Assembly (NCBI GenBank): GCA_964520505.1
Contig: CAZFQP010000003.1
Location: 16,738 to 80,737, forward strand
Source of the DNA: an uncultured Candidatus Saccharibacteria bacterium
Lineage (GTDB): Bacteria; Patescibacteriota; Doudnabacteria; UBA920
Direction of reading: 5' to 3'
Length of the DNA stretch: 64,000 nt
The position numbers and the translations under genes were made by a program. Under the pieces are notes generated by a model. That model ran no database searches. It worked only from the letters and a program-made list of their open reading frames with translations, and was not told the origin of the DNA. Shown here in pieces: positions 1,636-49,173 of this stretch; positions within the stretch are counted from its first letter, which is position 1, and every line of letters begins with the position of its first letter.

Positions 1636-2187
1636 ATGAATGCAAAAATAATTTTAGCGGTAGTTGGTTTGGCCGGTGCCGGCAAAACCGAAACTACGGA
1701 ATATTTAATAAAACAAACCGGTTGGTCAAAGGTTTATTTTGGCCAAGTAGTTATGGACGAGGTGGCCAAGCGGGGACTGGAAGTCAACGAGGCAAATGAA
1801 AGATTAGTGCGGGAAGAATTGCGCGCAACGCACGGAATGGCGGCTATGGCCATTTTAAGCATTCCTAAAATTAAAGAACTTTTTGCCACGGGGAGCGTGA
1901 TATTGGAAAGTATGTATTCCTGGGAAGAATATCTGGCTTTAAAAGAAGCTTTTGGCGAAAGTTTTAAAGTTCTGGCAATTTTTTCTTCTCCGCAAACCAG
2001 AACCGCTCGGATGATTAATCGCCCCACTAGGCCCCTGACCCCCGAGCTTTTACAATCCAGGGACTATTCACAAATCGAAAATCTGCACCAGGCCGGACCA
2101 ATTGCCAGAGCAGATTGGACTATTGTTAACGAAGGAAGCAAAGAAGAACTATACAATAATCTCGAGGAGATTATTGGGAATTTATAA
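1636..2187 (+). CDS. P-loop nucleoside/nucleotide kinase-like protein (paralog 1); possible (d)NMP kinase
   Basis: Walker A GLAGAGKT near N-terminus; ~180 aa; C-terminus (EELYNNLEEIIGNL) homologous to the ORF at 2739; lies inside the dTTP cluster. Confidence 0.5.
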   Translation: MNAKIILAVVGLAGAGKTETTEYLIKQTGWSKVYFGQVVMDEVAKRGLEVNEANERLVREELRATHGMAAMAILSIPKIKELFATGSVILESMYSWEEYLALKEAFGESFKVLAIFSSPQTRTARMINRPTRPLTPELLQSRDYSQIENLHQAGPIARADWTIVNEGSKEELYNNLEEIIGNL

Positions 2188-2273
2188 GATTTAAAAGAAT
2201 GACATGATTGACAAGAATGGTTGCGAAAATCTTGCTCAATCTTTTAATTCATTTAAATCATGTCAATAAATTT
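2188..2273 (+). promoter_or_regulatory. Conserved ~85-bp intergenic module copy 1: TTGACAAGAAT..inverted repeat..TTTAATTCATTTAAAT..TTGTCAATAAATT (putative promoter plus operator)
   Basis: ~85% identical to 3310-3406; contains -35-like TTGACA/TTGTCA hexamers and a degenerate 11-bp inverted repeat. Confidence 0.5.
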
Positions 2274-2714
2274 ATGCTTGTAAAAATTAAACGCCTGGAT
2301 CCATCTATAGAATTGCCAAAATACCACACCTCAGAGTCGGCTGGTTTTGATATTGCCTCAAATGTTGATGTTGTAGTAGACCCTGGTCAGGTCGCCAAAA
2401 TACCCACCGGATTGGTAATTGCCGCTCCCAGCGGCCATTTTTTGCTCATATCAGCCCGCAGCAGCCTAGCTCTTAAAAAGGGTCTGAATATGGCCAATGG
2501 GGTTGGTATAATAGACCCAGACTATGCCGGTCCGAACGACCAGATCCACATTATAGTTCACAATTTTACCAACCAGCCGGTGGAGGTGAAAAAAGGCGAA
2601 CGTTTGGCGCAGGGAATATTTTTGCCGGCAGAGCAAGCTGTTTGGGAAGAAGTCGACCAACTGAGAGAGAATGACAGGGGAGGAGTGGGATCTACCGGAG
2701 GGTATAAGGATTGA
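2274..2714 (+). CDS. dut: dUTP diphosphatase (dUTPase)
   Basis: All dUTPase motifs present: SAGFDI, GLVIAAPSG, ARSSLA, GIIDPDY, RGGVGSTG. The ORF-track start at 2208 runs into the conserved intergenic repeat; ATG at 2274 (MLVKIKRL) preferred. Confidence 0.9.
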   Translation: MLVKIKRLDPSIELPKYHTSESAGFDIASNVDVVVDPGQVAKIPTGLVIAAPSGHFLLISARSSLALKKGLNMANGVGIIDPDYAGPNDQIHIIVHNFTNQPVEVKKGERLAQGIFLPAEQAVWEEVDQLRENDRGGVGSTGGYKD

Positions 2715-2738
2715 CCAAAAATGACCAAAATTTAAAAA

Positions 2739-3326
2739 TTGACCAAAAATAATATGCAGGAAACAGAACACAAAAAAAATATTATTGGTTTGGTGGGTGA
2801 AAAGCTTGCCGGTAAGGACACCGCTGCCAATTATCTGGTGAAAAAATACGGCGCCGGACATTTTCGGTTTACCCATATTTTGGACGCGATATTGGAAGAT
2901 TTAGATATGCCCATTTCCAGAAAGAACGAAATTGATTTAGGCTTGTCATTGCGCAAAATTTTTGGCGCTCATGTTTTGGTGGATGCTCTGGGGCATCGCG
3001 TAAGTAAATCTTGGGAAAACTTAATTGTGGTCAATGGCATTCGTATGGACGAGTTGGATGTAGTAAAAGGTTGGGAAGCAAAAATTATTTATATTACCGC
3101 GCCGGTTGAGCTGCGTTTTGAGCGATACAATATGCGCCATGAAAAAGACGACGACGGAGTTATGGATATAAATGCTTTTAAAGTTCAAGAAACCGGCCCG
3201 ACCGAAGCCGCCATTCCCGAGCTCGGCAAACAGGCGGATTTTAGAATCGATAATGTCGGCAGTTTAGAGGAGTTGTATAAGAAAGTTGATGGAATCATTG
3301 AAAATTTAAAAGATTTAAAAGAATGA
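2739..3326 (+). CDS. P-loop nucleoside/nucleotide kinase-like protein (paralog 2)
   Basis: P-loop GEKLAGKDT; C-terminus SLEELYKKVDGIIENL homologous to paralog 1; same position relative to the repeated intergenic module. Confidence 0.5.
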   Translation: MTKNNMQETEHKKNIIGLVGEKLAGKDTAANYLVKKYGAGHFRFTHILDAILEDLDMPISRKNEIDLGLSLRKIFGAHVLVDALGHRVSKSWENLIVVNGIRMDELDVVKGWEAKIIYITAPVELRFERYNMRHEKDDDGVMDINAFKVQETGPTEAAIPELGKQADFRIDNVGSLEELYKKVDGIIENLKDLKE

Positions 3327-3406
3327 CATGATTGACAAGAATAGCTGCAGAAATTCTTGTCAATTGTTTAATTCATTTAAATGTTGTCAATAAATTTATT
3401 ATTTTT
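3310..3406 (+). promoter_or_regulatory. Conserved intergenic module copy 2 with perfect 11-bp inverted repeat TTGACAAGAAT-N10-ATTCTTGTCAA
   Basis: Direct comparison with 2188-2273; palindrome with 11-bp arms typical of a dimeric HTH repressor operator overlapping -35-like hexamers. Confidence 0.5.
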
Positions 3407-4153
3407 ATGAGTTTATTAAAATTTGGAAAATCCAAAAAGAATAAGAACGAACAACAACCGTCCAAAGGTCGTTTTATTGTTATTGATGGTACGGATGGTA
3501 GCGGTAAGGCCACGCAAACTAATTTGCTCGTGGAAGAGTTAAAGTTGGGAGGCTATGAAGTGGAAATGACAGATTTTCCTCAGTATGGGACAAAATCCGC
3601 AGGGCTGATTGAAGAATATTTAAACGGCAAATACGGACAGGTTGGTCCGGAGGCGGCGTCAATTTTTTACGCAATTGACAGGTTTGATGCTTCATTTAAA
3701 ATTCGCGAGTGGTTGGCTGCCGGAAAGATTGTTATTTCCAATCGTTACGTTACCGCCAACGCCGGACATCAAGGCGGAAAAATTGCCGATGATATGGATC
3801 GGTTAAAGTACTTTAAATGGCTGGATAATTTGGAATACAACATTTTTAACATCCCCAAACCGGATTTAAATATTATTTTGCATATGCCCGCGGAAATGGC
3901 GCAGGAGCTGGTGGATAAAAAATCCGCGGACGTCAGGGGTTATGCCAATGGTAAAAAAAGAGACTTGCATGAAGCCGATTTGAATCATTTGAAAAATGCC
4001 GAAAAAGTTTACTTGGAAATTGCCAAGCTTTTCCCTAACACCAAGCTGGTGGAATGCGTAACCAACGGTAAACTGCAGTCGCCCGCCGAAGTCCATAATA
4101 AAGTTTGGGAACTGGTTCGGAGAATAGCGTTAAAAGATATTAAACCAAAATAA
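3407..4153 (+). CDS. tmk: thymidylate kinase (dTMP kinase)
   Basis: FIVIDGTDGSGKATQ P-loop and DRY/lid region typical of Tmk; start moved to ATG 3407 (MSLLKFGK) because the upstream part of the track ORF is the intergenic repeat. Confidence 0.85.
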   Translation: MSLLKFGKSKKNKNEQQPSKGRFIVIDGTDGSGKATQTNLLVEELKLGGYEVEMTDFPQYGTKSAGLIEEYLNGKYGQVGPEAASIFYAIDRFDASFKIREWLAAGKIVISNRYVTANAGHQGGKIADDMDRLKYFKWLDNLEYNIFNIPKPDLNIILHMPAEMAQELVDKKSADVRGYANGKKRDLHEADLNHLKNAEKVYLEIAKLFPNTKLVECVTNGKLQSPAEVHNKVWELVRRIALKDIKPK

Positions 4154-4226
4154 TTGTTATTATAAAAGAGTAATTAATGACACATCAGCGCATTCCGCGC
4201 AGTCTGTGTGTCCGTGAGAAAATTTT

Positions 4227-5156
4227 ATGAAAGTATACCATGATCTTCTACAAAAATTATTGGATGACGGCGTACAAAAAGACGACCGCACCGGTGTAGG
4301 CACGCGCAGTGTTTTTGGCTATCAAATGCGGGTAGATTTAGCCAAAGGCTTTCCGCTGCTCACAACCAAAAAAGTAAACCTTAAAGCGGTAATTATCGAA
4401 CTATTATGGTTTTTAAAAGGGGAGACTAATATTCGTTTTTTGGTGCAAAATGACGTAAAAATTTGGAATGAGTGGGCTTACCAAATTTATTTGGAACAGG
4501 AGTATTTGTTGGAAAAGTATCCGCGCTATTCGCCGGAGTGGAAGGCTCATATGCTGGAGTTTGTGGAAAAAATTAAGGCTGACGATGAATTTGCTAAAAA
4601 GTACGGCGAACTGGGCCCTATTTACGGCAAGCAGTGGCGCCGCTGGGCAGGCCCGAATGGCGAGGAAATCGACCAGGTACAAAACATTATAGATTTAATT
4701 AATCAAGACCCGACTTCCCGTCGCATCATCATCAGCGGTTGGAACGTTGGCGAGATTCAGGAATTAATCCGCAATCATCACCACGCCCCGCCGCCTTGCC
4801 ACACTTTATTTCAGTTTATGGTCATTGACGGCAAGTTGTCTTGCCAGCTATATCAACGCAGCGCCGACGCGTTTTTAGGAGTACCGTTTAACATCGCTTC
4901 TTATGCTTTGTTTACTATGATGCTGGCGCAGGTTACGGGTTTGCAGCCCGGCGAGTTTATTCATACTTTCGGCGACTTGCATATTTATAATAATCATAAA
5001 GAGCAGGTTAAAGAGCAATTGTCGCGCGAACCCAGAGCTTTGCCGACTATGAAGCTAAACCCTGCGGTTAAAAATATTTTTGACTTTAAATACGAAGATT
5101 TTACTTTGGAAGGCTACAATCCTTACCCGCCAATTAAAGCGCCGATTGCCGTCTAA
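4227..5156 (+). CDS. thyA: thymidylate synthase (ThyA type, long form)
   Basis: dUMP-binding and catalytic region ([11 protein letters not shown] with Cys nucleophile); N-terminal [11 protein letters not shown]; 309 aa. Confidence 0.92.
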
Positions 5157-5162
5157 ATACTA

Positions 5163-5236
5163 AAACACTAAATTACTAAATCTGCGGTTTTCGTATTTTC
5201 GATTATTTCGTATTTAGTAGAAATTGTTACAAACAA
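5163..5236. repeat. Nested-palindrome intergenic element (TACTAAAT...TTTCGTATTTAGTAGAA family) immediately upstream of folA start
   Basis: Arms TACTAAATCTG / CGTATTTAGTA; same terminal motif TTTCGTATTTAGTAGAA recurs at 26262-26288. Confidence 0.55.
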
Positions 5237-5237
5237 T

Positions 5238-5714
5238 ATGATTGCAATAATTGCCGCCGTGGCGGAAAATAATGTTATAGGCGTAAAAAACGGCTTGCCC
5301 TGGAATTTGCCCGAAGACTTAAAACATTTTAAGCAAATTACTATGGGTAAAACCGTGCTAATGGGACGAAATACTTTTTTGTCCATTATGGAGATTTTAA
5401 AAAAGCCCTTTCCCGGCCGGGTAAATGTAGTAATCAGTAACAACCCCGAAGACAAAGTTCCGGAAGGAGTTTTGCTGTATCACGATTTGGAGAAAGCCTT
5501 GCAGGATCTTTCCGGCAAGGAAGTGTTTGTGGCCGGCGGCGCGATGATTTTTTCACAAATGATTAACCGCGTGGATAAATTATATATTACTCATATTCAT
5601 AAAGCCTACGACGGCGACGTAAAATTTCCGGAAATTAGCCCAGCAGTGTGGAATAAAACCAAAGAAGAACCGCACGAAGGCTTCACCTTTACTGAGTACG
5701 AAAGGGTAAAATAA
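5238..5714 (+). CDS. folA: dihydrofolate reductase
   Basis: MIAIIAAVAENNVIGVKNGLPWNLPEDLKHFKQITMGKTVLMGRNTF matches the DHFR N-terminal signature; 158 aa. Confidence 0.9.
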   Translation: MIAIIAAVAENNVIGVKNGLPWNLPEDLKHFKQITMGKTVLMGRNTFLSIMEILKKPFPGRVNVVISNNPEDKVPEGVLLYHDLEKALQDLSGKEVFVAGGAMIFSQMINRVDKLYITHIHKAYDGDVKFPEISPAVWNKTKEEPHEGFTFTEYERVK

Positions 5715-5736
5715 TTTGATACAAAATAAATAGCAG

Positions 5737-5764
5737 GAGACCGGGAGGTCTCCTGCAGAGCGAG
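5737..5764. terminator. Bidirectional hairpin GCAGGAGACCGGGAGGTCTCCTGC between folA and the convergent small gene
   Basis: Perfect 9-bp GC-rich stem; located between convergent gene ends. Confidence 0.6.
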
Positions 5765-5774
5765 CGGTAAGTGC

Positions 5775-6032
5775 TTACCGCTTTTTGAAGTGTTTGGCGA
5801 CCCCCATCACCAGTACGGTGATGGCAATCAGCACTATTCCGATTGCAAACGGTCGGAGTATCATAACTCCGAGTGTGTTGGCTGCACATGCTTCGGCTCC
5901 TTTGCAAGCGCCGGTTACATTTCGTACCAGCAAAAGTTCAATCGCCGCAGCCAGCAGTAATAATGGTCCTACAATTTTCATAAACCCCCCTGTGATTTGT
6001 TCATCAAGAGCTACATCCTTACTCTTGACCAT
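5775..6032 (-). CDS. small integral membrane protein (2 TM), hypothetical
   Basis: 85-aa ORF with two hydrophobic helices and a charged C-terminus; function unknown. Confidence 0.45.
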   Translation of the reverse strand: MVKSKDVALDEQITGGFMKIVGPLLLLAAAIELLLVRNVTGACKGAEACAANTLGVMILRPFAIGIVLIAITVLVMGVAKHFKKR

Positions 6033-7822: not shown

Positions 7823-7837
7823 AAAATCTGGTATAAT

Positions 7838-7912
7838 GATTTTACGAAGTACGAATGAAGCGAACTTACGAAACTAGCACGTGTGCAAATTCGTAAGTTG
7901 TAAATATTCGTA
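7838..7912. repeat. Palindromic intergenic element, TTTTACGAAGTACGAAT...CGAACTTACGAA...ATTCGTAAGTT family (copy 1, partly degenerate), preceded by TATAAT
   Basis: Shares arms with copies at 25553-25638 and 26857-26943; sits immediately upstream of ftsE start. Confidence 0.6.
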
Positions 7913-7924
7913 TTGGTAAAGATT

Positions 7925-8602
7925 ATGATAAAATTTGACAACGTCATAAAAAAATACAGCCATCAACGGGCTTTAGACGGTATAAATTTACAGGTTCACC
8001 GCGGTGAGTTTGTGTCTTTGGTCGGTCTTTCCGGAGCGGGAAAATCTACCTTACTTAAGCTGATTATTGGAGAAGAACAGATTGACGGTGGTAGGATTTT
8101 TATTGATGATGTTGACATTTCATTGGTTAAAAAAAGTGACCTGCCGTATTTAAGACGTAAAATTGGCATGGTGTTTCAGGATATAAAACTATTACCGAGA
8201 CGAACTGCCTATGAAAATGTGGCTTTTGCTATGGAAGTTTGCGGTCATCGTCTGGAAAAAATTCAAAAGGAAGTGCCAAAAATTTTGGAATTGGTTGGTT
8301 TGTTGCACAAAAAAGACAGTTTCCCAAACGAAATGTCCGGCGGAGAAAAACAAAGAGTGGCTATTGCCCGGGCGCTGTCACATCGGCCGGTTTTACTGCT
8401 AGCCGATGAACCAACCGGCAACTTGGACGAAGTTAATGCCGGCGAGGTGATTGACTTGTTAATGAAAATTAACCAGCTTGGCACCACTGTTATTTTGGCG
8501 ACTCACGCCGCGGATTTGGTTAATAAAATAAAAAAACGGGTTATAACAATTGAAGGCGGAAAAATTACTATTGAACAGCAAAAAGGAAAATACAAGTTGT
8601 AA
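7925..8602 (+). CDS. ftsE: cell division ATP-binding protein FtsE
   Basis: Walker A GLSGAGKST, ABC signature LSGGEKQRVAIARAL, Walker B LLADEPTGNLD; followed by ftsX; ATG 7925 preferred over TTG 7913. Confidence 0.9.
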   Translation: MIKFDNVIKKYSHQRALDGINLQVHRGEFVSLVGLSGAGKSTLLKLIIGEEQIDGGRIFIDDVDISLVKKSDLPYLRRKIGMVFQDIKLLPRRTAYENVAFAMEVCGHRLEKIQKEVPKILELVGLLHKKDSFPNEMSGGEKQRVAIARALSHRPVLLLADEPTGNLDEVNAGEVIDLLMKINQLGTTVILATHAADLVNKIKKRVITIEGGKITIEQQKGKYKL

Positions 8603-8636
8603 GCACGAACACACGAACGACACTAAAGATACGAAA

Positions 8637-9008
8637 ATGGCGGAAATCTTTTATAAAGATGAAAGTTATAAAATAACCGGTGCGGTAATGAATGTTTTTA
8701 AAGCCTTGGGTTATGGCTATCAAGAAAAGTATTATTATCGGGCAATAAAAGAAGCCATTTTAAGTTTAGGTTTTAAGATAAAAGAACAAGTATTTACCCC
8801 TTTGTTGTATAATGGTAAATCTATCGGCAATTATTATTTAGACTTTTTGATTAATGATTCAATTGTATTGGAAATAAAAGTCAGCAACGAAATTTATCCA
8901 AGGCATATTAAACAAGTATTGGGTTATTTAACAGCCCATAATCTGAAATTGGGGATAATCGCCGCATTTACTAAGAATGGTGTAATTTTCAAAAGAGTAG
9001 TAAATTAA
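8637..9008 (+). CDS. GxxExxY family protein (PD-(D/E)xK nuclease-like)
   Basis: GYGYQEKYYYRAI (GxxExxY) motif and LEIKV core; start at MAEIFYKD; inserted between ftsE and ftsX and flanked by imperfect inverted GTGTTCGTG-type repeats (8603-8625 / 9019-9056). Confidence 0.7.
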   Translation: MAEIFYKDESYKITGAVMNVFKALGYGYQEKYYYRAIKEAILSLGFKIKEQVFTPLLYNGKSIGNYYLDFLINDSIVLEIKVSNEIYPRHIKQVLGYLTAHNLKLGIIAAFTKNGVIFKRVVN

Positions 9009-9061: not shown

Positions 9062-9979
9062 ATGTTTGACTCCGTATCATTTTTAAGAGCTATAAAAACC
9101 GGACTGACCAATTTTGTCAGGAATTTGTGGTTGTCTATGGCAGCTACTATGGTCATGACAATTACCTTGGTAATTTTGTCTACCCTGTTTTTATTATTCG
9201 TTCTGACAAATTATTCCATTAAAACTATTCAGAATACGGTGGATATTAGCGTATATTTTAAAATTGGTTTAGCTGAAGACCAAATTAATAACATTAAAAA
9301 CCAAATTACCCAAGACCAAAAAGTTAAAGAGGTGTCTTATGTTTCAGCAGCGCAGGCTTTTCAGGATTTTAAAAGCAAGCACGAAAACGATCCATTAATT
9401 ACCCAGTCGTTAAATGAATTGACGGAAAATCCTCTGCCGGCCACTCTTCACATAAAGGCTAATGAGCTGCAGGATTATCCGGCAATTGCTGAACGCTTGC
9501 AAACCGACCAATATGCCAATTTTATCGACAAAGTAAATTTTGAAGACAATCGGTTGGTAATTGAGCGGCTAAACAAAATTTTAAAATTTATTGTCACCTT
9601 TGGAGTTGTTTTGGTTGTTATTTTTGCTTTAATTGCCATCTTGGTGATTTATAACACCATTACTCTGACCATTTATAACCGCAAAGAGGAGGTTGAAATT
9701 ATGCGCCTGGTTGGGGCAACTAATTGGTATATTCGAGCGCCATTTTTAACGGAAAGTATTTTATACAGCATTTTGTCAACGGTAATTACCGGAATCTTTC
9801 TGTCGCCGGTTTTTGCCAAAGTTATTCCGGTGGTAACGCAGTATGTTAACCCGCAAGTCGGGCTGTACAGCGGAAGAATTTTGAATTATTATTGGCTTCT
9901 TTTGGCTTTATTTGGATTAGCCTTAATTTTGTCTTTGGGGTCAACCTTATTCGCGATTCGGAAATATTTGAAAATTTAG
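9062..9979 (+). CDS. ftsX: cell division permease FtsX
   Basis: N-terminal FLRAIKTGLTNFVRNLWLS, periplasmic domain then 3 C-terminal TM helices; genomic pairing with ftsE. Confidence 0.85.
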   Translation: MFDSVSFLRAIKTGLTNFVRNLWLSMAATMVMTITLVILSTLFLLFVLTNYSIKTIQNTVDISVYFKIGLAEDQINNIKNQITQDQKVKEVSYVSAAQAFQDFKSKHENDPLITQSLNELTENPLPATLHIKANELQDYPAIAERLQTDQYANFIDKVNFEDNRLVIERLNKILKFIVTFGVVLVVIFALIAILVIYNTITLTIYNRKEEVEIMRLVGATNWYIRAPFLTESILYSILSTVITGIFLSPVFAKVIPVVTQYVNPQVGLYSGRILNYYWLLLALFGLALILSLGSTLFAIRKYLKI

Positions 9980-25049: not shown

Positions 25050-25553
25050 ATGGTTTTGCCAATATTAACTTATCCGAATGAAATTTTAAGAAAACCGACC
25101 CAGCCGGTTAGTTTTCCCTTGTCCCCGGAAATAAAAAAGTTGACCAAGGATATGATAGACACCGTGCGCAATGCCGACGGGATTGGTTTGGCGGCGCCGC
25201 AGGTGGGTAAATCTGTTAAATTAATTGTTATTAATTTAGAAAAAAGCGGCATTCCGCTGATGGTTTTGTATAATGCTAAAGTAATTAGCCGCGGTTTTAA
25301 GAAAGTTGATATTGAAGAAGGCTGTTTGTCTATCCCAGGGATTTATGGCAATGTTCGCCGGCCAAAAAAGGTGACCGTAGAAGCTTATACAGCGGATGGA
25401 AAGAAAATAAAGTTTATAGATGACGGTTGGATTGCCCGAGTAGCTCAGCACGAAATTGACCATACAAATGGAATACTGATTATCGACCTGATTAAGAAGT
25501 ACACACAAGGAGAAGAGAAAGTAAAAGAGTGGAAGGAAAAGAAATTAATTTGA
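25050..25553 (+). CDS. def: peptide deformylase
   Basis: Three PDF motifs: GIGLAAPQVG, EGCLSIPG, HEIDHTNG. Confidence 0.92.
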   Translation: MVLPILTYPNEILRKPTQPVSFPLSPEIKKLTKDMIDTVRNADGIGLAAPQVGKSVKLIVINLEKSGIPLMVLYNAKVISRGFKKVDIEEGCLSIPGIYGNVRRPKKVTVEAYTADGKKIKFIDDGWIARVAQHEIDHTNGILIIDLIKKYTQGEEKVKEWKEKKLI

Positions 25554-25638
25554 TTTTACGAAGTACGAATACCTACGAACTTACGAAGTGAGCTCGGGTG
25601 GAAATTCGTAAGTTCGTAAAGGTTAGTACTTCGTAAAA
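25553..25638. repeat. Palindromic intergenic element copy 2 (TTTTACGAAGTACGAAT..CGAACTTACGAAG..ATTCGTAAGTTCGTAAAG..GTACTTCGTAAAAT), nested hairpins; ends 1 nt before the next start codon
   Basis: Outer arms TTTTACGAAGTAC / GTACTTCGTAAAA and inner arms CGAACTTACGAA / TTCGTAAGTTCG are exact reverse complements. Confidence 0.65.
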
Positions 25639-25639
25639 T

Positions 25640-26176
25640 ATGAAGTTTATTAAAGACCTGCTTTTTTTTGAAATTCAGACTACGGGGCAAAATGCCGACA
25701 AGGATTCTATTGTCCAATTGTCGGCGGTTTTGTTGGATAAGGATAATTTGCTGGAAAAAAATAATTTTAACAGCTATATTAAAGTTAGTTATTTAGATAG
25801 CGTGATTGCAGACCATGCGCGCCTACTGAACGTAGACCAAAATATGTTGCGTAAGAGCCCGAAGGTTTATGATTGTATTAAACAGTTTAATCACAAATTC
25901 GGCAACGATTTACTTTTGGCCAGTTATAGTTTTGACAATTTATTGTTCTTGAAAAACGCATTTAAAAAAGCTGTTGTCCCTTTTAATTATGATCCTCATA
26001 TTGTGCAGTTGTGGACTTTGGGATATATATATACTTTGAATTACGGCTTGAAAAAAATGCCAACGCTCAATACTTTTTTGGATTATTTTCGTTTAAAGTT
26101 AAAAAATCCGTTTGACTCAATGGAGCGAGCTCGCTTGGAAGCCGAGGTATTTAGAAAGATAATTAAAGAAGTATAG
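25640..26176 (+). CDS. DnaQ-like 3'-5' exonuclease paralog with degenerate catalytic motifs (likely inactive)
   Basis: Homologous to 26290 ORF (KDLLFFEIQTTG vs KDILLIDTEFTG; shared VQLSAVLLDK). Exo I D-x-E becomes E-x-Q; Exo III H...D replaced by F...R. Confidence 0.55.
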   Translation: MKFIKDLLFFEIQTTGQNADKDSIVQLSAVLLDKDNLLEKNNFNSYIKVSYLDSVIADHARLLNVDQNMLRKSPKVYDCIKQFNHKFGNDLLLASYSFDNLLFLKNAFKKAVVPFNYDPHIVQLWTLGYIYTLNYGLKKMPTLNTFLDYFRLKLKNPFDSMERARLEAEVFRKIIKEV

Positions 26177-26288
26177 GCTCTACTAAATACTAAAAAATAC
26201 AAAAAAGTACTAAATCAGAATTAATTACCGCTTTCGTCAGTACGGTTTAGTATCTTTAGTAGCATTTCGTATTTAGTAGAAGGAAATC
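26177..26288. repeat. Nested-palindrome element of the TACTAAATAC family (terminal 11-bp inverted repeats CTACTAAATAC / GTATTTAGTAG) between the two exonuclease paralogs
   Basis: Ends TTTCGTATTTAGTAGAAGG just upstream of the start codon, as at 5205-5236. Confidence 0.55.
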
Positions 26289-26289
26289 T

Positions 26290-26853
26290 ATGGATTTCAA
26301 CAAAGACATTTTATTGATTGACACTGAGTTTACTGGTTTTGATATTGATAAGCACGAAATTGTGCAGTTGGCCGCAGTGTTGCTGGATAAAAAAACCTTA
26401 AAGGAAAAAAAGTTTTTTTCTTCTTATATTAAGCCTCGGCGCTGGAAAACGCGCAATCGGGAATCGATGAAAGTGAATAACATTACTCTAGAAATGTTGC
26501 AAGGCGCGCCGGACTTAAAAGAGGTTTTAAAAAAATTTGACCGAACGTTTGGCCACAACGTCATTCAGGCTTTTTATGTCGGCTATAATGACAAACGTTT
26601 TTTACTGGAAAGCTATAGGCGCGCGGGACTAAAATGGCGGTTTGACTATCACTATTTTGAGCTTTGGGGTTTGTTTTATCCCTTTTTAGCCGTTAAAAAT
26701 AAACTTAAGACCATAAAAGATTTTGCCGGGTTTGGGATTGAATCGATGTTAAAAATTTTTAAAATTGAACAACCGGACAATTTGCATGATGCTTTAACTG
26801 ACTGCCGGGTGGAAGCGGAAATTTTAAGAAAAGTAATTAAACAAATAATTTAA
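26290..26853 (+). CDS. DEDDh-family 3'-5' exonuclease (DnaQ/oligoribonuclease-like), intact motifs
   Basis: Exo I IDTEFTG, Exo II YNDKRFL, Exo III HDALTDCRVEAE. Confidence 0.7.
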   Translation: MDFNKDILLIDTEFTGFDIDKHEIVQLAAVLLDKKTLKEKKFFSSYIKPRRWKTRNRESMKVNNITLEMLQGAPDLKEVLKKFDRTFGHNVIQAFYVGYNDKRFLLESYRRAGLKWRFDYHYFELWGLFYPFLAVKNKLKTIKDFAGFGIESMLKIFKIEQPDNLHDALTDCRVEAEILRKVIKQII

Positions 26854-26856
26854 CAG

Positions 26857-26943
26857 ACTTTACGAAGTACGAATTTATACTAACTTACGAAGAAAACTCG
26901 TAGGGGAATTCGTAAGTTCGTAAAGATTGGTACTTCGTAAAAT
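26857..26943. repeat. Palindromic intergenic element copy 3 (same family as 25553-25638), ends 2 nt before fmt start
   Basis: CTTTACGAAGTACGAAT...AACTTACGAAG...ATTCGTAAGTTCGTAAAG...GTACTTCGTAAAAT. Confidence 0.65.
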
Positions 26944-26945
26944 TT

Positions 26946-27872
26946 ATGAGGATTATTTTTTTTGGCACTGCTAACGTGGCCTTGCCCATTTTGGAAGAAT
27001 TAAGGTTGGAACATGACATTGTGGCCGTGGTTACCACGCCCGATGTTAAGGTTGGTCGCAAGCAAATTTTGCAGGAAAGTCCGGTGTCGGCTTTGGCTAA
27101 GGATTTAAATTTAACTACCTACAAACCAGAAAAGATAAAAAATAACCCTGAATTTTTAAAAATTTTGACCGATTTAGCCGCTGATATTTTTGTGGTGGTG
27201 GCTTACGGCAAAATTTTGCCTATGGAAGTTATTAACCTGCCGCCACATAAAACTGTTAATGTCCATTTTTCCCTGCTGCCAAAATATCGCGGTCCGTCCC
27301 CAATTCAGGCCGCCCTACTTGCCGGTGACACCCATACAGGCTCAAGTATTTTTGTGCTGGACGAAGGTGTGGATACAGGACCATTAATTGCCCAGGAAAT
27401 TTTAGCTGTTGAGCCGGACGACAACTTTTTTACTCTCTCAGATAAGTTGGCAAGGTTTTCTGCAAAATTAATTTTACCAACTTTGGAAGACTACACAGGA
27501 GGTAAAATTACTCCCCTACCCCAAGTAGAAGAAGGCATCAGTCAAACTAAAATTATTTCCAAAGTTGACGGTAAAGCCGATTGGAACCAGTCGGCTGCGG
27601 AAATTTATAACCGATTCCGGGCATTTTATATTTGGCCCGGACTATGGTCTACCTGGCAAGGTAAAACTTTAAAAATCACCGATTGTCGGCCGGTGGATTC
27701 CCAAGCACTAAAAGATGTTGCCGTCGGATCAATTTTGGATGGTGGAATTGTTGTGTGTGGTCAAAATACCGCCTTACAAATTAGTAGCCTGCAGCTTGAG
27801 GGAAAAACCGAAGTGGCAATTATGGATTTTTTGAACGGTTATAAAAATTTCGTGGGCAGCAGGCTCGAATAG
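26946..27872 (+). CDS. fmt: methionyl-tRNA formyltransferase
   Basis: N-terminal formyltransferase domain MRIIFFGT...VVTTPD, SLLPKYRGPSPIQ motif, C-terminal Fmt domain; def-fmt linkage. Confidence 0.9.
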   Translation: MRIIFFGTANVALPILEELRLEHDIVAVVTTPDVKVGRKQILQESPVSALAKDLNLTTYKPEKIKNNPEFLKILTDLAADIFVVVAYGKILPMEVINLPPHKTVNVHFSLLPKYRGPSPIQAALLAGDTHTGSSIFVLDEGVDTGPLIAQEILAVEPDDNFFTLSDKLARFSAKLILPTLEDYTGGKITPLPQVEEGISQTKIISKVDGKADWNQSAAEIYNRFRAFYIWPGLWSTWQGKTLKITDCRPVDSQALKDVAVGSILDGGIVVCGQNTALQISSLQLEGKTEVAIMDFLNGYKNFVGSRLE

Positions 27873-40319: not shown

Positions 40320-40396
40320 TTTATTTTGGTTTTAAGATAACTGTCTTTTAAGAAGTATATCAGATGCAATTCAAAATACTCAACTCAAACCAAAAT

Positions 40397-40427
40397 ATAT
40401 TCTGGTATTCTGCAGAATATCAGAATG
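40397..40427. promoter_or_regulatory. 31-bp element ATATTCTGGTATTCTGCAGAATATCAGAATG containing a 26-bp near-perfect palindrome; candidate ArsR-family operator upstream of the antiporter gene
   Basis: Direct repeat of 40706-40736 (one mismatch); central ATTCTGCAGAAT is a perfect palindrome. Confidence 0.55.
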
Positions 40428-40689
40428 ATTTAGTGAAGGCAAAAAACTTTTTTCCGTAGGGCGAGAGGGAATGTAAAACCTCCCTGTCTCGATATTTTTT
40501 GTTGAGCAGTCCGGCTTGAACCAGTTTTCTGGTATGTTCAGAAATAGTTTTAATATTGCATTTTAACTGGGTTGAAATTTGATTCAGTGTAATTCCTGAG
40601 GATTTTTCGACCAAAAATAAAATCTCAATGCGCCGATGGTTGGCGGCTCCTTTAAAGTATCTCTCTAGTTGTTTGCAAGTCTTTTGCAC
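40420..40689 (-). CDS. ArsR/SmtB-family transcriptional regulator
   Basis: HTH region ANHRRIEILFLV...ITLNQISTQLKCNIKTISEHTRKLVQAGLL. Confidence 0.8.
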   Translation of the reverse strand: MQKTCKQLERYFKGAANHRRIEILFLVEKSSGITLNQISTQLKCNIKTISEHTRKLVQAGLLNKKYRDREVLHSLSPYGKKFFAFTKSF

Positions 40690-40705
40690 AAAATTCCCAT
40701 TATTA

Positions 40706-40736
40706 TATTCTGGTATTCTGCAGAATGTCAGAATGT
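40706..40736. promoter_or_regulatory. Second copy of the 31-bp palindromic operator-like element, upstream of the arsR-family gene (autoregulation site candidate)
   Basis: See 40397-40427. Confidence 0.55.
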
Positions 40737-40744
40737 TTTTAGGG

Positions 40745-48997: not shown

Positions 48998-49073
48998 TGG
49001 AGCCCACTATCAGATTCGAACTGATCACCTGCTCCTTACCATGGAGCTGCTCTGCCAAATGAGCTAAGTGGGC
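48998..49073 (-). tRNA. tRNA-Thr (anticodon GGT)
   Basis: GCCCACTTAGCTCATTTGGCAGAGCAGCTCCATGGTAAGGAGCAGGTGATCAGTTCGAATCTGATAGTGGGCTCCA; CCA encoded. Confidence 0.88.
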
Positions 49074-49173
49074 ATATTGTAGAATAGTATAGAATATCTG
49101 AATTATTTTTTCAAGAGACTTTTAGGCCATTCGTCCGTCGAATGCGGAGAAATGGCCTAAAACAAAAATTGAT

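Follow-up and report, generated by a model that had tools for sequence, protein, structure and literature searches.

Two spacers in a dTTP-synthesis gene cluster of an uncultured Candidatus Saccharibacteria bacterium (Doudnabacteria in the GTDB lineage) are so alike that they raise the question of what the shared sequence is, and how it came to stand upstream of both dut and tmk. The cluster, dcd-kin1-dut-kin2-tmk-thyA-folA, lies in a 64-kb stretch of contig CAZFQP010000003.1 that is called the window when its full length is meant, and 35 open reading frames (ORFs) of the window were scanned for domains. The initial annotation proposed that a P-loop kinase gene had been duplicated together with the module that follows it, a putative repressor operator, so that dut and tmk came under the same control. 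Comparison across genomes instead identifies both modules as members of a repeat family that is AT-rich, imperfectly palindromic and dispersed in Candidatus Doudnabacteria. With somewhat better than even confidence, we read them as a palindromic repeat of the kind represented by ERIC, REP, Rickettsia palindromic elements (RPE) and Correia elements, which was copied locally within one operon and probably forms an intercistronic RNA hairpin, with a putative function.

The two modules are part of a direct repeat in which positions 2110-2275 match 3234-3399. Identity reaches 90% over the core (78/87; 2188-2273 versus 3312-3397) and 86% over the full unit (99/115; 2163-2275 versus 3287-3399), and the spacer module is indeed better conserved between its two copies than the kinases beside it, which share 23% of their residues. 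Copy 1 (2176-2275, + strand; nhmmer match 2178-2275, E = 5e-24) fills the kin1-dut spacer as an imperfect palindrome, and copy 2 (3300-3399, + strand; nhmmer match 3304-3398, E = 1e-22) does so between kin2 and tmk; a family profile run over the window found these two places only. The module occupies the whole intercistronic spacer: its left arm, which carries stop codons in all three frames at its left end, crosses the upstream stop codon, and its right arm stops a few bases short of the downstream ATG, the last word often lying exactly 6 nucleotides before it. Copy 2 is not wholly non-coding: kin2 ends inside its left arm, which covers five codons and the stop (KDLKE*, 3312-3326).

Each arm is an array of about four 9-nucleotide words, TGACAAGAT-like on the left and ATCTTGTCA-like on the right. 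The tandem 9-mers of the right arm read ATCTTGTCA / ATCTTTTAA / TTCATTTAA / ATCTTGTCA, the left arm consists of their complements, and the outermost words are inverted copies of each other (ATTGACA.GAT and ATC.TGTCAAT). The two middle right-hand words have degenerated to TTTAATTCATTTAAAT, which heads a right block at 2243-2267 in copy 1 (TTTAATTCATTTAAAT-CA-TGTCAAT, with TTTAATTCATTTAAAT at 2243-2258) and at 3367-3391 in copy 2 (TTTAATTCATTTAAAT-GT-TGTCAAT, with TTTAATTCATTTAAAT at 3367-3382), both on the + strand; TGTCAATAAATT comes after TTTAATTCATTTAAAT in both. The inverted repeat emphasized in the initial annotation, to which no strand is assigned, lies at the centre. It is perfect in copy 2, as had been stated (3332-3363; TTGACAAGAAT-N10-ATTCTTGTCAA, arms at 3332-3342 and 3353-3363), and degenerate in copy 1 (2208-2239; TTGACAAGAAT ... 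ATCTTGCTCAA, right arm at 2229-2239), and its exact 11-mer occurs three times in the window, always within the modules. The symmetry, however, is not confined to this central repeat, as the whole unit of copy 2 is one long imperfect palindrome with arms of 44 nucleotides each (3304-3347 and 3348-3391) that are 77% complementary. The earlier description was thus correct about the repeat, the inverted repeat and the blocks, all of which are in the sequence, and fell short on the extent of the palindrome and on the non-coding nature of copy 2. Folded as RNA, both copies take the same predicted three-segment hairpin, at -21 kcal/mol (z = -3.2) for copy 1 and -24.4 kcal/mol (z = -4.1) for copy 2.

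A metagenome scan for the right block (TTTAATTCATTTAAATNNTGTCAAT) gave four further loci, and no copy was present in the viral contigs scanned. One copy stands immediately upstream of a glycerate-kinase-like gene (L047), one lies between infC and rpmI and is antisense to both (L048), and one separates rplA from a receiver-domain (response regulator) gene (L049). In the fourth (L046, 3402-3584) the right arm is split by a GC-rich palindrome of ~90 nucleotides with GTC on both sides; by its sequence, one palindromic repeat has here become inserted into another. An alignment of seven copies revealed a nearly invariant right arm and a left arm that varies in sequence and in the number of its words (3 to 5). 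Three family members are antisense to the genes that flank them, most copies being sense. The family therefore has the properties by which a dispersed palindromic intergenic repeat is recognized: unrelated contexts, both orientations, and presence or absence at orthologous sites. The same contexts speak against a nucleotide regulon, as does pyrG, a nucleotide-metabolism gene in the window that has no copy of the module.

To follow the history of the two copies, 42 orthologous loci were gathered, and the kin2-tmk spacer was compared in 39 of them. Together with homologues of kin2, the 42 loci assign the window to Candidatus Doudnabacteria, within the Patescibacteria. This spacer measures at most 30 nucleotides in 19 loci, holds an AT-rich hairpin in 6 and a GC-rich palindrome in 8, and has other content in the rest; the module itself is present there only in the window genome and in L043, whose kin2 is 94% identical. 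In L003, which is the nearest genome among the species representatives, the kin2-tmk spacer is 2 nucleotides long, and the kin1-dut spacer carries a different hairpin, built of TACGAA words. In L044 (kin2 90% identical), the kin1-dut spacer holds the module, through which the kin1 frame continues to give the tail GNLKDLKE*, and the kin2-tmk spacer, with the same flanks, holds an unrelated CTAATT/AATTAG hairpin. In L008 the left arm has been lost, and no more than the right half of the module remains at kin1-dut; the family member of L014 lies at dut-kin2 and is antisense. Its occurrence in L044 and, decayed, in L008 shows the kin1-dut copy to be the older of the two, as judged from this phylogenetic spread, and the kin2-tmk copy is the younger. 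At diagnostic positions copy 1 groups with the copy of L044 and copy 2 with that of L043, so that the divergence of the two copies must precede the split of these genomes. On the sequence comparison, the kin2-tmk site either received a local copy, from 1124 bp away and in the same orientation, after L044 had branched off, or bore an older copy that was replaced in L044.

Duplication of a kinase gene and module as one segment, as first proposed, does not agree with this history, since the paralogy of the kinases predates 14 genomes and the kin2-tmk module is restricted to the window and L043. The left edge of the copied segment lies within the last 5-13 kinase codons; II..L(K) is native to the tails of both paralogues, which prevents a closer placing of the breakpoint. 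No more than a few terminal kinase codons would have been copied together with the spacer. Another palindromic element of ~110 nucleotides, richer in GC (GCGTCATCCTGAGG...GAAGGATCTC...GAGATCCTTC...CCTCAGGATGACGC), was observed in different slots of the same cluster, at kin1-dut in L013 and at kin2-tmk in L007 and L023.

Conservation of the modules was compared with that of four-fold degenerate sites in the flanking genes. In the comparison of the window with L043, identity is 64% at four-fold sites (62% where the window has A or T) and 93-94% in module 2 (95-96% at A/T positions); in that with L044 the values are 73% (64% at A/T sites) and 93% for module 1 (95% at A/T). The contrast at A/T positions gives Fisher p values of 3e-7 to 4e-6, and the earlier claim that the module exceeds neutral conservation holds, with orthologous copies 93-95% identical where four-fold sites reach 62-73%. 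The differences are concentrated within the central inverted repeat and the loop and right next to them, and the outer blocks are nearly unchanged; the inverted repeat thus evolves at a roughly neutral rate between constrained flanking blocks. Substitution patterns of this kind show sequence constraint on the outer blocks and not on the central inverted repeat.

This constraint bears on the possibility that the family is a selfish or purely mutational palindrome without host function, spread by copy and paste through a putative transposase, gene conversion or template switching at hairpins. Such an element could look conserved because its copies are young or are homogenized against a conserved pool. 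Several features are as expected for it: close relatives that differ in the presence of the element or carry an entirely different one in the same slot, the nested insertion in L046, the three-frame stops at the left end with the upstream ORF simply running into the element, hairpin quality that declines in older copies, and the tendency of copies of one family to lie 0.3-1.3 kb apart. However, neutral decay should have erased the right block unless selection acts at the level of the element, and same-slot orthologous copies far exceed the flanking four-fold sites in identity. The right block is, moreover, nearly invariant where the rplA proteins are only 73-78% identical to those at other Doudnabacteria loci. 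We consider this explanation unlikely.

A repressor operator, in which a dimeric or multimeric DNA-binding protein would bind the TGACAA/TTGTCA words and the duplication would place dut and tmk under common, possibly nucleotide-responsive control, would account for a constraint on the outer blocks far above neutral, for the dyad symmetry and repeated words, and for the survival of the right block without a hairpin in L008. An operator-like palindrome family near an ArsR-type gene, described below, was also taken to show that such regulation occurs in this genome. The part put forward as the operator is nevertheless the least conserved. Absence of the inverted repeat from orthologous loci had been set in advance as the finding that would speak against an operator, and most orthologous loci do lack it; it is perfect only in copy 2, being imperfect in copy 1, in L043 and in L044, and no other part of the module varies as much. 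An arm may have anything from 3 to 5 words, the family flanks functionally unrelated genes in both orientations and is missing at pyrG, and no regulator gene adjoins the modules. The many word families that occupy the same slots in relatives would also need many cognate factors in small genomes. Together with the position of the modules inside an operon (see below), these observations make an operator for dut and tmk quite improbable.

The frame in which the modules stand is probably a single transcription unit. A promoter-like site, TTGTCA-17-TAAAAT (1104-1132, + strand), upstream of dcd matched 10/12 consensus positions in the scan, and both of its hexamers are kept in L003 (TTGTCA...TAGAAT); from the sequence, this site is the probable promoter of the whole cluster. 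All seven genes are on the + strand: dcd (dCMP deaminase, 1158-1625; Pfam PF00383, E = 2.5e-23), kin1 (1636-2187), dut (dUTPase, 2274-2714; PF00692, E = 2.8e-26), kin2 (2754-3326), tmk (thymidylate kinase, 3407-4153; PF02223, E = 5.8e-21), thyA (4227-5156) and folA (5238-5714). Two GC-rich hairpins follow folA (5733-5785, + strand), the second with a T run after it and the first kept in L003, and they mark the probable end of the operon. Because of this promoter and these hairpins, the stretch from dcd to folA can be inferred to be one operon, extending from 1104 to ~5733-5785; the modules would therefore be transcribed within a polycistronic mRNA.

It is also conceivable that the module acts as a portable internal promoter, its right arm supplying a -35-like TTGTCA and a weak -10, so that dut and tmk would have transcripts of their own. 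TTGTCA does serve as the -35 hexamer of the conserved dcd promoter, the last word often ends exactly 6 nucleotides before the ATG, and the copies are mostly sense. Against this, a consensus scan detected no + strand sigma-70-type promoter in either module, although the initial annotation had the inverted repeat overlap -35-like hexamers. Inspection by hand revealed no consistent -10 in the modules; the best candidate (AATNNT, 17 nucleotides after the first TTGTCA) matches 3/6 positions by eye. The -35-like word itself varies (TTGCTC, TTGCCC, TTGTTC) and three family members are antisense to the genes around them, so that a promoter function is very unlikely. No intrinsic terminator was found in either module by scanning, canonical ones being present elsewhere in the window.

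Other identities were considered and rejected. TTG-started ORFs (from 2208 and from 3332) might make the modules N-terminal coding extensions of dut and tmk, and the frame is open in several copies; a coding extension was rejected because of 1-nucleotide indels upstream in L043 and L044, variation at codon positions 1-2, and the three antisense copies. The element ends carry neither GTAG nor CGTC, the mark of REP sequences and REPINs (PMC3733652), and the 35 window ORFs scanned include no RAYT (IS200-like Y1 transposase) gene. As regards miniature inverted-repeat transposable elements (MITEs), the outermost words are inverted, and no target-site duplication is definable, empty and filled sites being too diverged. 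In Rfam, the window had no match at gathering score except three tRNAs, and 2100-3500 had no match up to E = 1.

The 9-nucleotide words also called to mind an RNA-guided system, namely a stand-alone stem-loop guide unit or target array of the TIGR-Tas type. Such systems occur in Patescibacteria, including catalytically dead repressor forms (10.64898/2026.09.09.750476; PMC12045711); TIGR spacers are 9 nucleotides long and the two spacers of one guide read opposite DNA strands, just as the module has 9-nucleotide words on both strands. A guide array was rejected, however: there are no box C or box D motifs flanking unpaired spacers, the candidate spacers are base-paired to one another in the predicted fold, and no Nop-domain (tas) gene was found among the 35 scanned window ORFs or next to any family member. 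The targets of TIGR systems are, furthermore, contiguous 18-bp sites and not palindromic arrays, and we give this possibility hardly any credence.

We therefore return to the intercistronic repeat as the preferred explanation. Each module would fold in the mRNA into an imperfect hairpin of ~40 bp, so that the spacer is looped out and the downstream start codon comes to lie near the upstream stop codon. The likeliest effect is post-transcriptional: the double strand would be a site of processing or stability, or would keep the cistrons coupled, or both, and nucleotide-responsive repression is less likely than an effect of this kind. Ectopic gene conversion or template switching is the probable origin of the second copy, for which the similar 3' ends of the paralogous kinases on one side and the A+T-rich start region on the other may have served as anchors. 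A conserved factor probably recognizes the nearly invariant right block.

Several results weigh against this explanation. RNA folding is strong for some of the other copies (z = -5.7 for L049, -3.8 for L048 and -3.3 for L047), but the orthologous copies of L043 and L044 fold no better than shuffled sequences (z = -1.5 and -1.4), and L008 has retained the right block with its left arm, and hence the hairpin, gone. Poor folding together with retention of the right block points to a constraint on sequence and not a purely structural one. Changes between orthologous copies are not compensatory. RNAalifold, run on seven mostly closely related copies, found a double change in 1/17 consensus pairs, the other 16 being invariant or broken, and with a covariation term of +0.65 it gives essentially no covariation. 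G-T and A-C mismatches (38 versus 31, p = 0.47) show no strand asymmetry; this test is underpowered, because asymmetry was likewise lacking in the GC-rich control class. Of the hallmarks of mobility (a transposase, a target-site duplication, a defined terminal repeat), none was identified. Pairing does not explain the strong constraint on the right block, which keeps alive a protein-binding site or element-level selection.

The modules are not the only hairpins of this appearance. A census of 242 spacers, from the window and the fetched loci, found AT-rich hairpins (at least 18 Watson-Crick pairs) in 43 (~18%), compared with 4-6 in shuffles. Co-directional genes flank 38 of the 43, and the hairpins start at a median of 3.5 nucleotides inside the upstream ORF and end ~9 nucleotides before the next one, so that the spacer left once a hairpin has folded is comparable in length with the 1-20 nucleotides of insert-free relatives. 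The words differ by family (TACGAA, ACTAAA, ATATCC, CTAATT and others) and, at the same slot, by genome. Canonical GC-rich terminators sit at convergent gene ends, which sets the AT-rich hairpins apart as a separate class; as a class the latter show no T-run polarity, but the GC-rich hairpins show none either, which makes this test uninformative.

The def-fmt region (25050-27872) has the same layout as the modules, with one hairpin family twice in one operon: def, a TACGAA hairpin (25554-25639), an RNase_T-like exonuclease gene, an ACTAAA hairpin (26177-26289), a paralogous exonuclease gene, a second TACGAA hairpin (26854-26945) and fmt. Folding energies of the two TACGAA copies are -37 to -41 kcal/mol (z ~ -7). 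Further TACGAA hairpins occur between prfB and ftsE in the window (7823-7912) and in the kin1-dut spacer of L003 (~2930-2990), so that this second family, too, is dispersed and common to more than one genome. The thyA-folA spacer (5157-5237, + strand) contains an AT-rich word hairpin unlike the modules (ACTAAA/TTTAGT), the 3' end of which, TTTCGTATTTAGTAGAA, recurs in the exonuclease spacer at 26177-26289; in L003 the thyA-folA spacer is of unrelated sequence. A broader proposal, which we regard as decidedly doubtful, is that the operons of Doudnabacteria, and possibly of many Patescibacteria, are punctuated by diverse palindromic word hairpins, constrained in sequence and fast in turnover, that occupy entire spacers. 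Each family would be read by a conserved factor acting in trans (protein or guide RNA), and the families together would make up a modular control layer, the dut/tmk modules being one family among them. If so, word hairpins would provide post-transcriptional or roadblock-type control in organisms with very few classical transcription factors, and the modules would make two dTTP-synthesis steps answer to one signal.

Palindromes of another kind were observed around a small winged-helix gene of the ArsR/MarR type (40420-40689, - strand), which is flanked by 36-nucleotide copies of ATTCTG..CAGAAT at 40396-40431 and 40704-40739. The pair also precedes a Na/Ca-exchanger gene, and a third copy (49073-49108) adjoins a tRNA gene. 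From its arrangement, the pair looks like a classical autoregulated operator pair.

The initial annotation described the kinases as divergent paralogues with homologous C-termini, and BLASTP bears this out: kin1 and kin2 are 23% identical (E = 3e-5) and their C-termini align, kin1 ending in EELYNNLEEIIGNL*. In the kinase bodies, nucleotide identity is 42% (164/393) and residue identity 35/131. Family and profile searches placed both proteins in the UPF0200 / PRK08356 / T4-dNMP-kinase-like group. kin1, of the UPF0200/AAA_17 type, matches AAA_17/AAA_18 and the solved UPF0200 protein SSO1041 (3H0K/3LW7, E ~3e-9). kin2, of the T4 dNMP-kinase / PRK08356 type, scores 29.4 bits against PF21448 (T4-type dNMP kinase; cut-off 27.1), matching with residues 10-48 only to a model of 232 positions; it also matches NCBIfam PRK08356, and its profile finds the UPF0200 protein SSO1041 at E = 4e-11 and T4 gp1 (1DEK) at E = 6e-6. 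These family and profile matches are the reason for regarding both kinases as UPF0200 / dNMP-kinase-like. The exact kin2 protein was absent from the records looked up, the nearest being P0001 (94%) and P0002 (90%).

Across 14 genomes with both genes, kin1/kin2 paralogues are 17-30% identical and orthologues 51-91%, so the kinase duplication is older than all 14. Orthologues of kin1 were present in 16 loci, and the kin2-tmk adjacency extends to many Patescibacteria without kin1. The C-terminal helix (..EELY....II..L) is common to both paralogues and native also in genomes without the module, so that no recent event is necessary to explain it. Independent of the repeat, kin1 and kin2 are reasonable candidates for the missing dNMP kinases.

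Some further features of the cluster and its surroundings deserve mention. The dut-kin2 spacer (2711-2753, + strand) contains three direct TGACCAAAA words without a hairpin partner and is a separate constrained element outside the module family: it is 39/39 identical in L043 (four-fold sites 64%), has a different word set in L044, and is overlapped by a weak promoter-like match (TTGACC-17-AAAAAT). A GC-containing hairpin (GACACATCAGCGCATTCCGCGCAGTCTGTGTGTC) at ~4176-4215, directly 5' of thyA, has no Rfam match and is kept in L003 with apparently paired changes; it may be a leader element of thyA. In L045, an 83% relative, an HD-domain gene (3416-4069) is inserted between dcd and kin1, and its product may be a nucleotidase or dNTPase of the pathway. 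Window positions ~170-600 are GC-rich, with ORFs overlapping on both strands, amid A+T-rich surroundings, and did not align to L003, whereas both flanks did. ftsE and ftsX are usually adjacent; here an ORF of the PD-(D/E)XK nuclease family (8550-9008) lies between ftsE (7913-8602) and ftsX (9062-9979).

How does the repeat compare with known elements? The ERIC or IRU sequences of enterobacteria were reportedly described by Hulton and colleagues in 1991 as imperfect palindromes of ~127 bp in transcribed intergenic regions. Like them, the module is an imperfect palindrome of ~100 bp that lies in spacers inside or next to operons, occurs in both orientations and has no coding capacity; in both cases the sequence is highly conserved between species at differing occupied sites and the function is debated. 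Unlike ERIC, it is very A+T-rich, consists of tandem 9-nucleotide words, fills the spacer and, in this genome, overlaps the upstream stop codon, and a likeness in sequence is not expected. The Correia elements of Neisseria, whose long hairpins are RNase III substrates, resemble the module in standing within co-transcribed spacers; they differ in their defined terminal inverted repeats with TA duplication and in promoter activity, of which the module gives no evidence. As with RPE, the upstream ORF can read through the element, which supplies the tail KDLKE* of kin2 in the window and of kin1 in L044, but no internal in-frame insertions into genes were seen. The intercistronic RNase III sites of phage T7 are single-copy, position-conserved and experimentally proven. 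They, too, are long imperfect stem-loops that fill the spacer between cistrons of one transcript, whereas the module, at most a putative cleavage site, turns over between close relatives.

REP, BIME and REPIN sequences are dispersed extragenic palindromes, with several families per genome, whose inverted doublets form long hairpins and whose proposed roles include mRNA stabilization (PMC3337134; PMC3733652). The module differs from them in lacking the GTAG/CGTC head and a RAYT gene among the scanned ORFs, in having arms that are word arrays and not a single REP of 20-40 bp, and in numbering two copies in 64 kb. It shares with NrdR boxes the dyad symmetry and the repeated sites near nucleotide-metabolism genes; it does not resemble them in sequence, is not at a promoter, is not restricted to nucleotide genes, and has an unconserved palindrome core. 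Literature searches on palindromic or MITE/REP-type repeats in Patescibacteria yielded no account of such a family.

These results carry a caution for regulon prediction in candidate-phyla genomes, where a conserved palindrome 5' of two related genes can be a locally copied dispersed repeat. They place two ancient UPF0200 / dNMP-kinase-like paralogues within a dcd-dut-tmk-thyA-folA operon, and they indicate that tight operons, with genes that are 1-20 nucleotides apart in relatives and probably translationally coupled, can carry self-complementary inserts of ~90 nucleotides. The family may represent a new class of repeat in Patescibacteria, and if the constraint on its outer blocks reflects a host function, such inserts would offer a cheap means of tuning expression within the operons of regulator-poor genomes.

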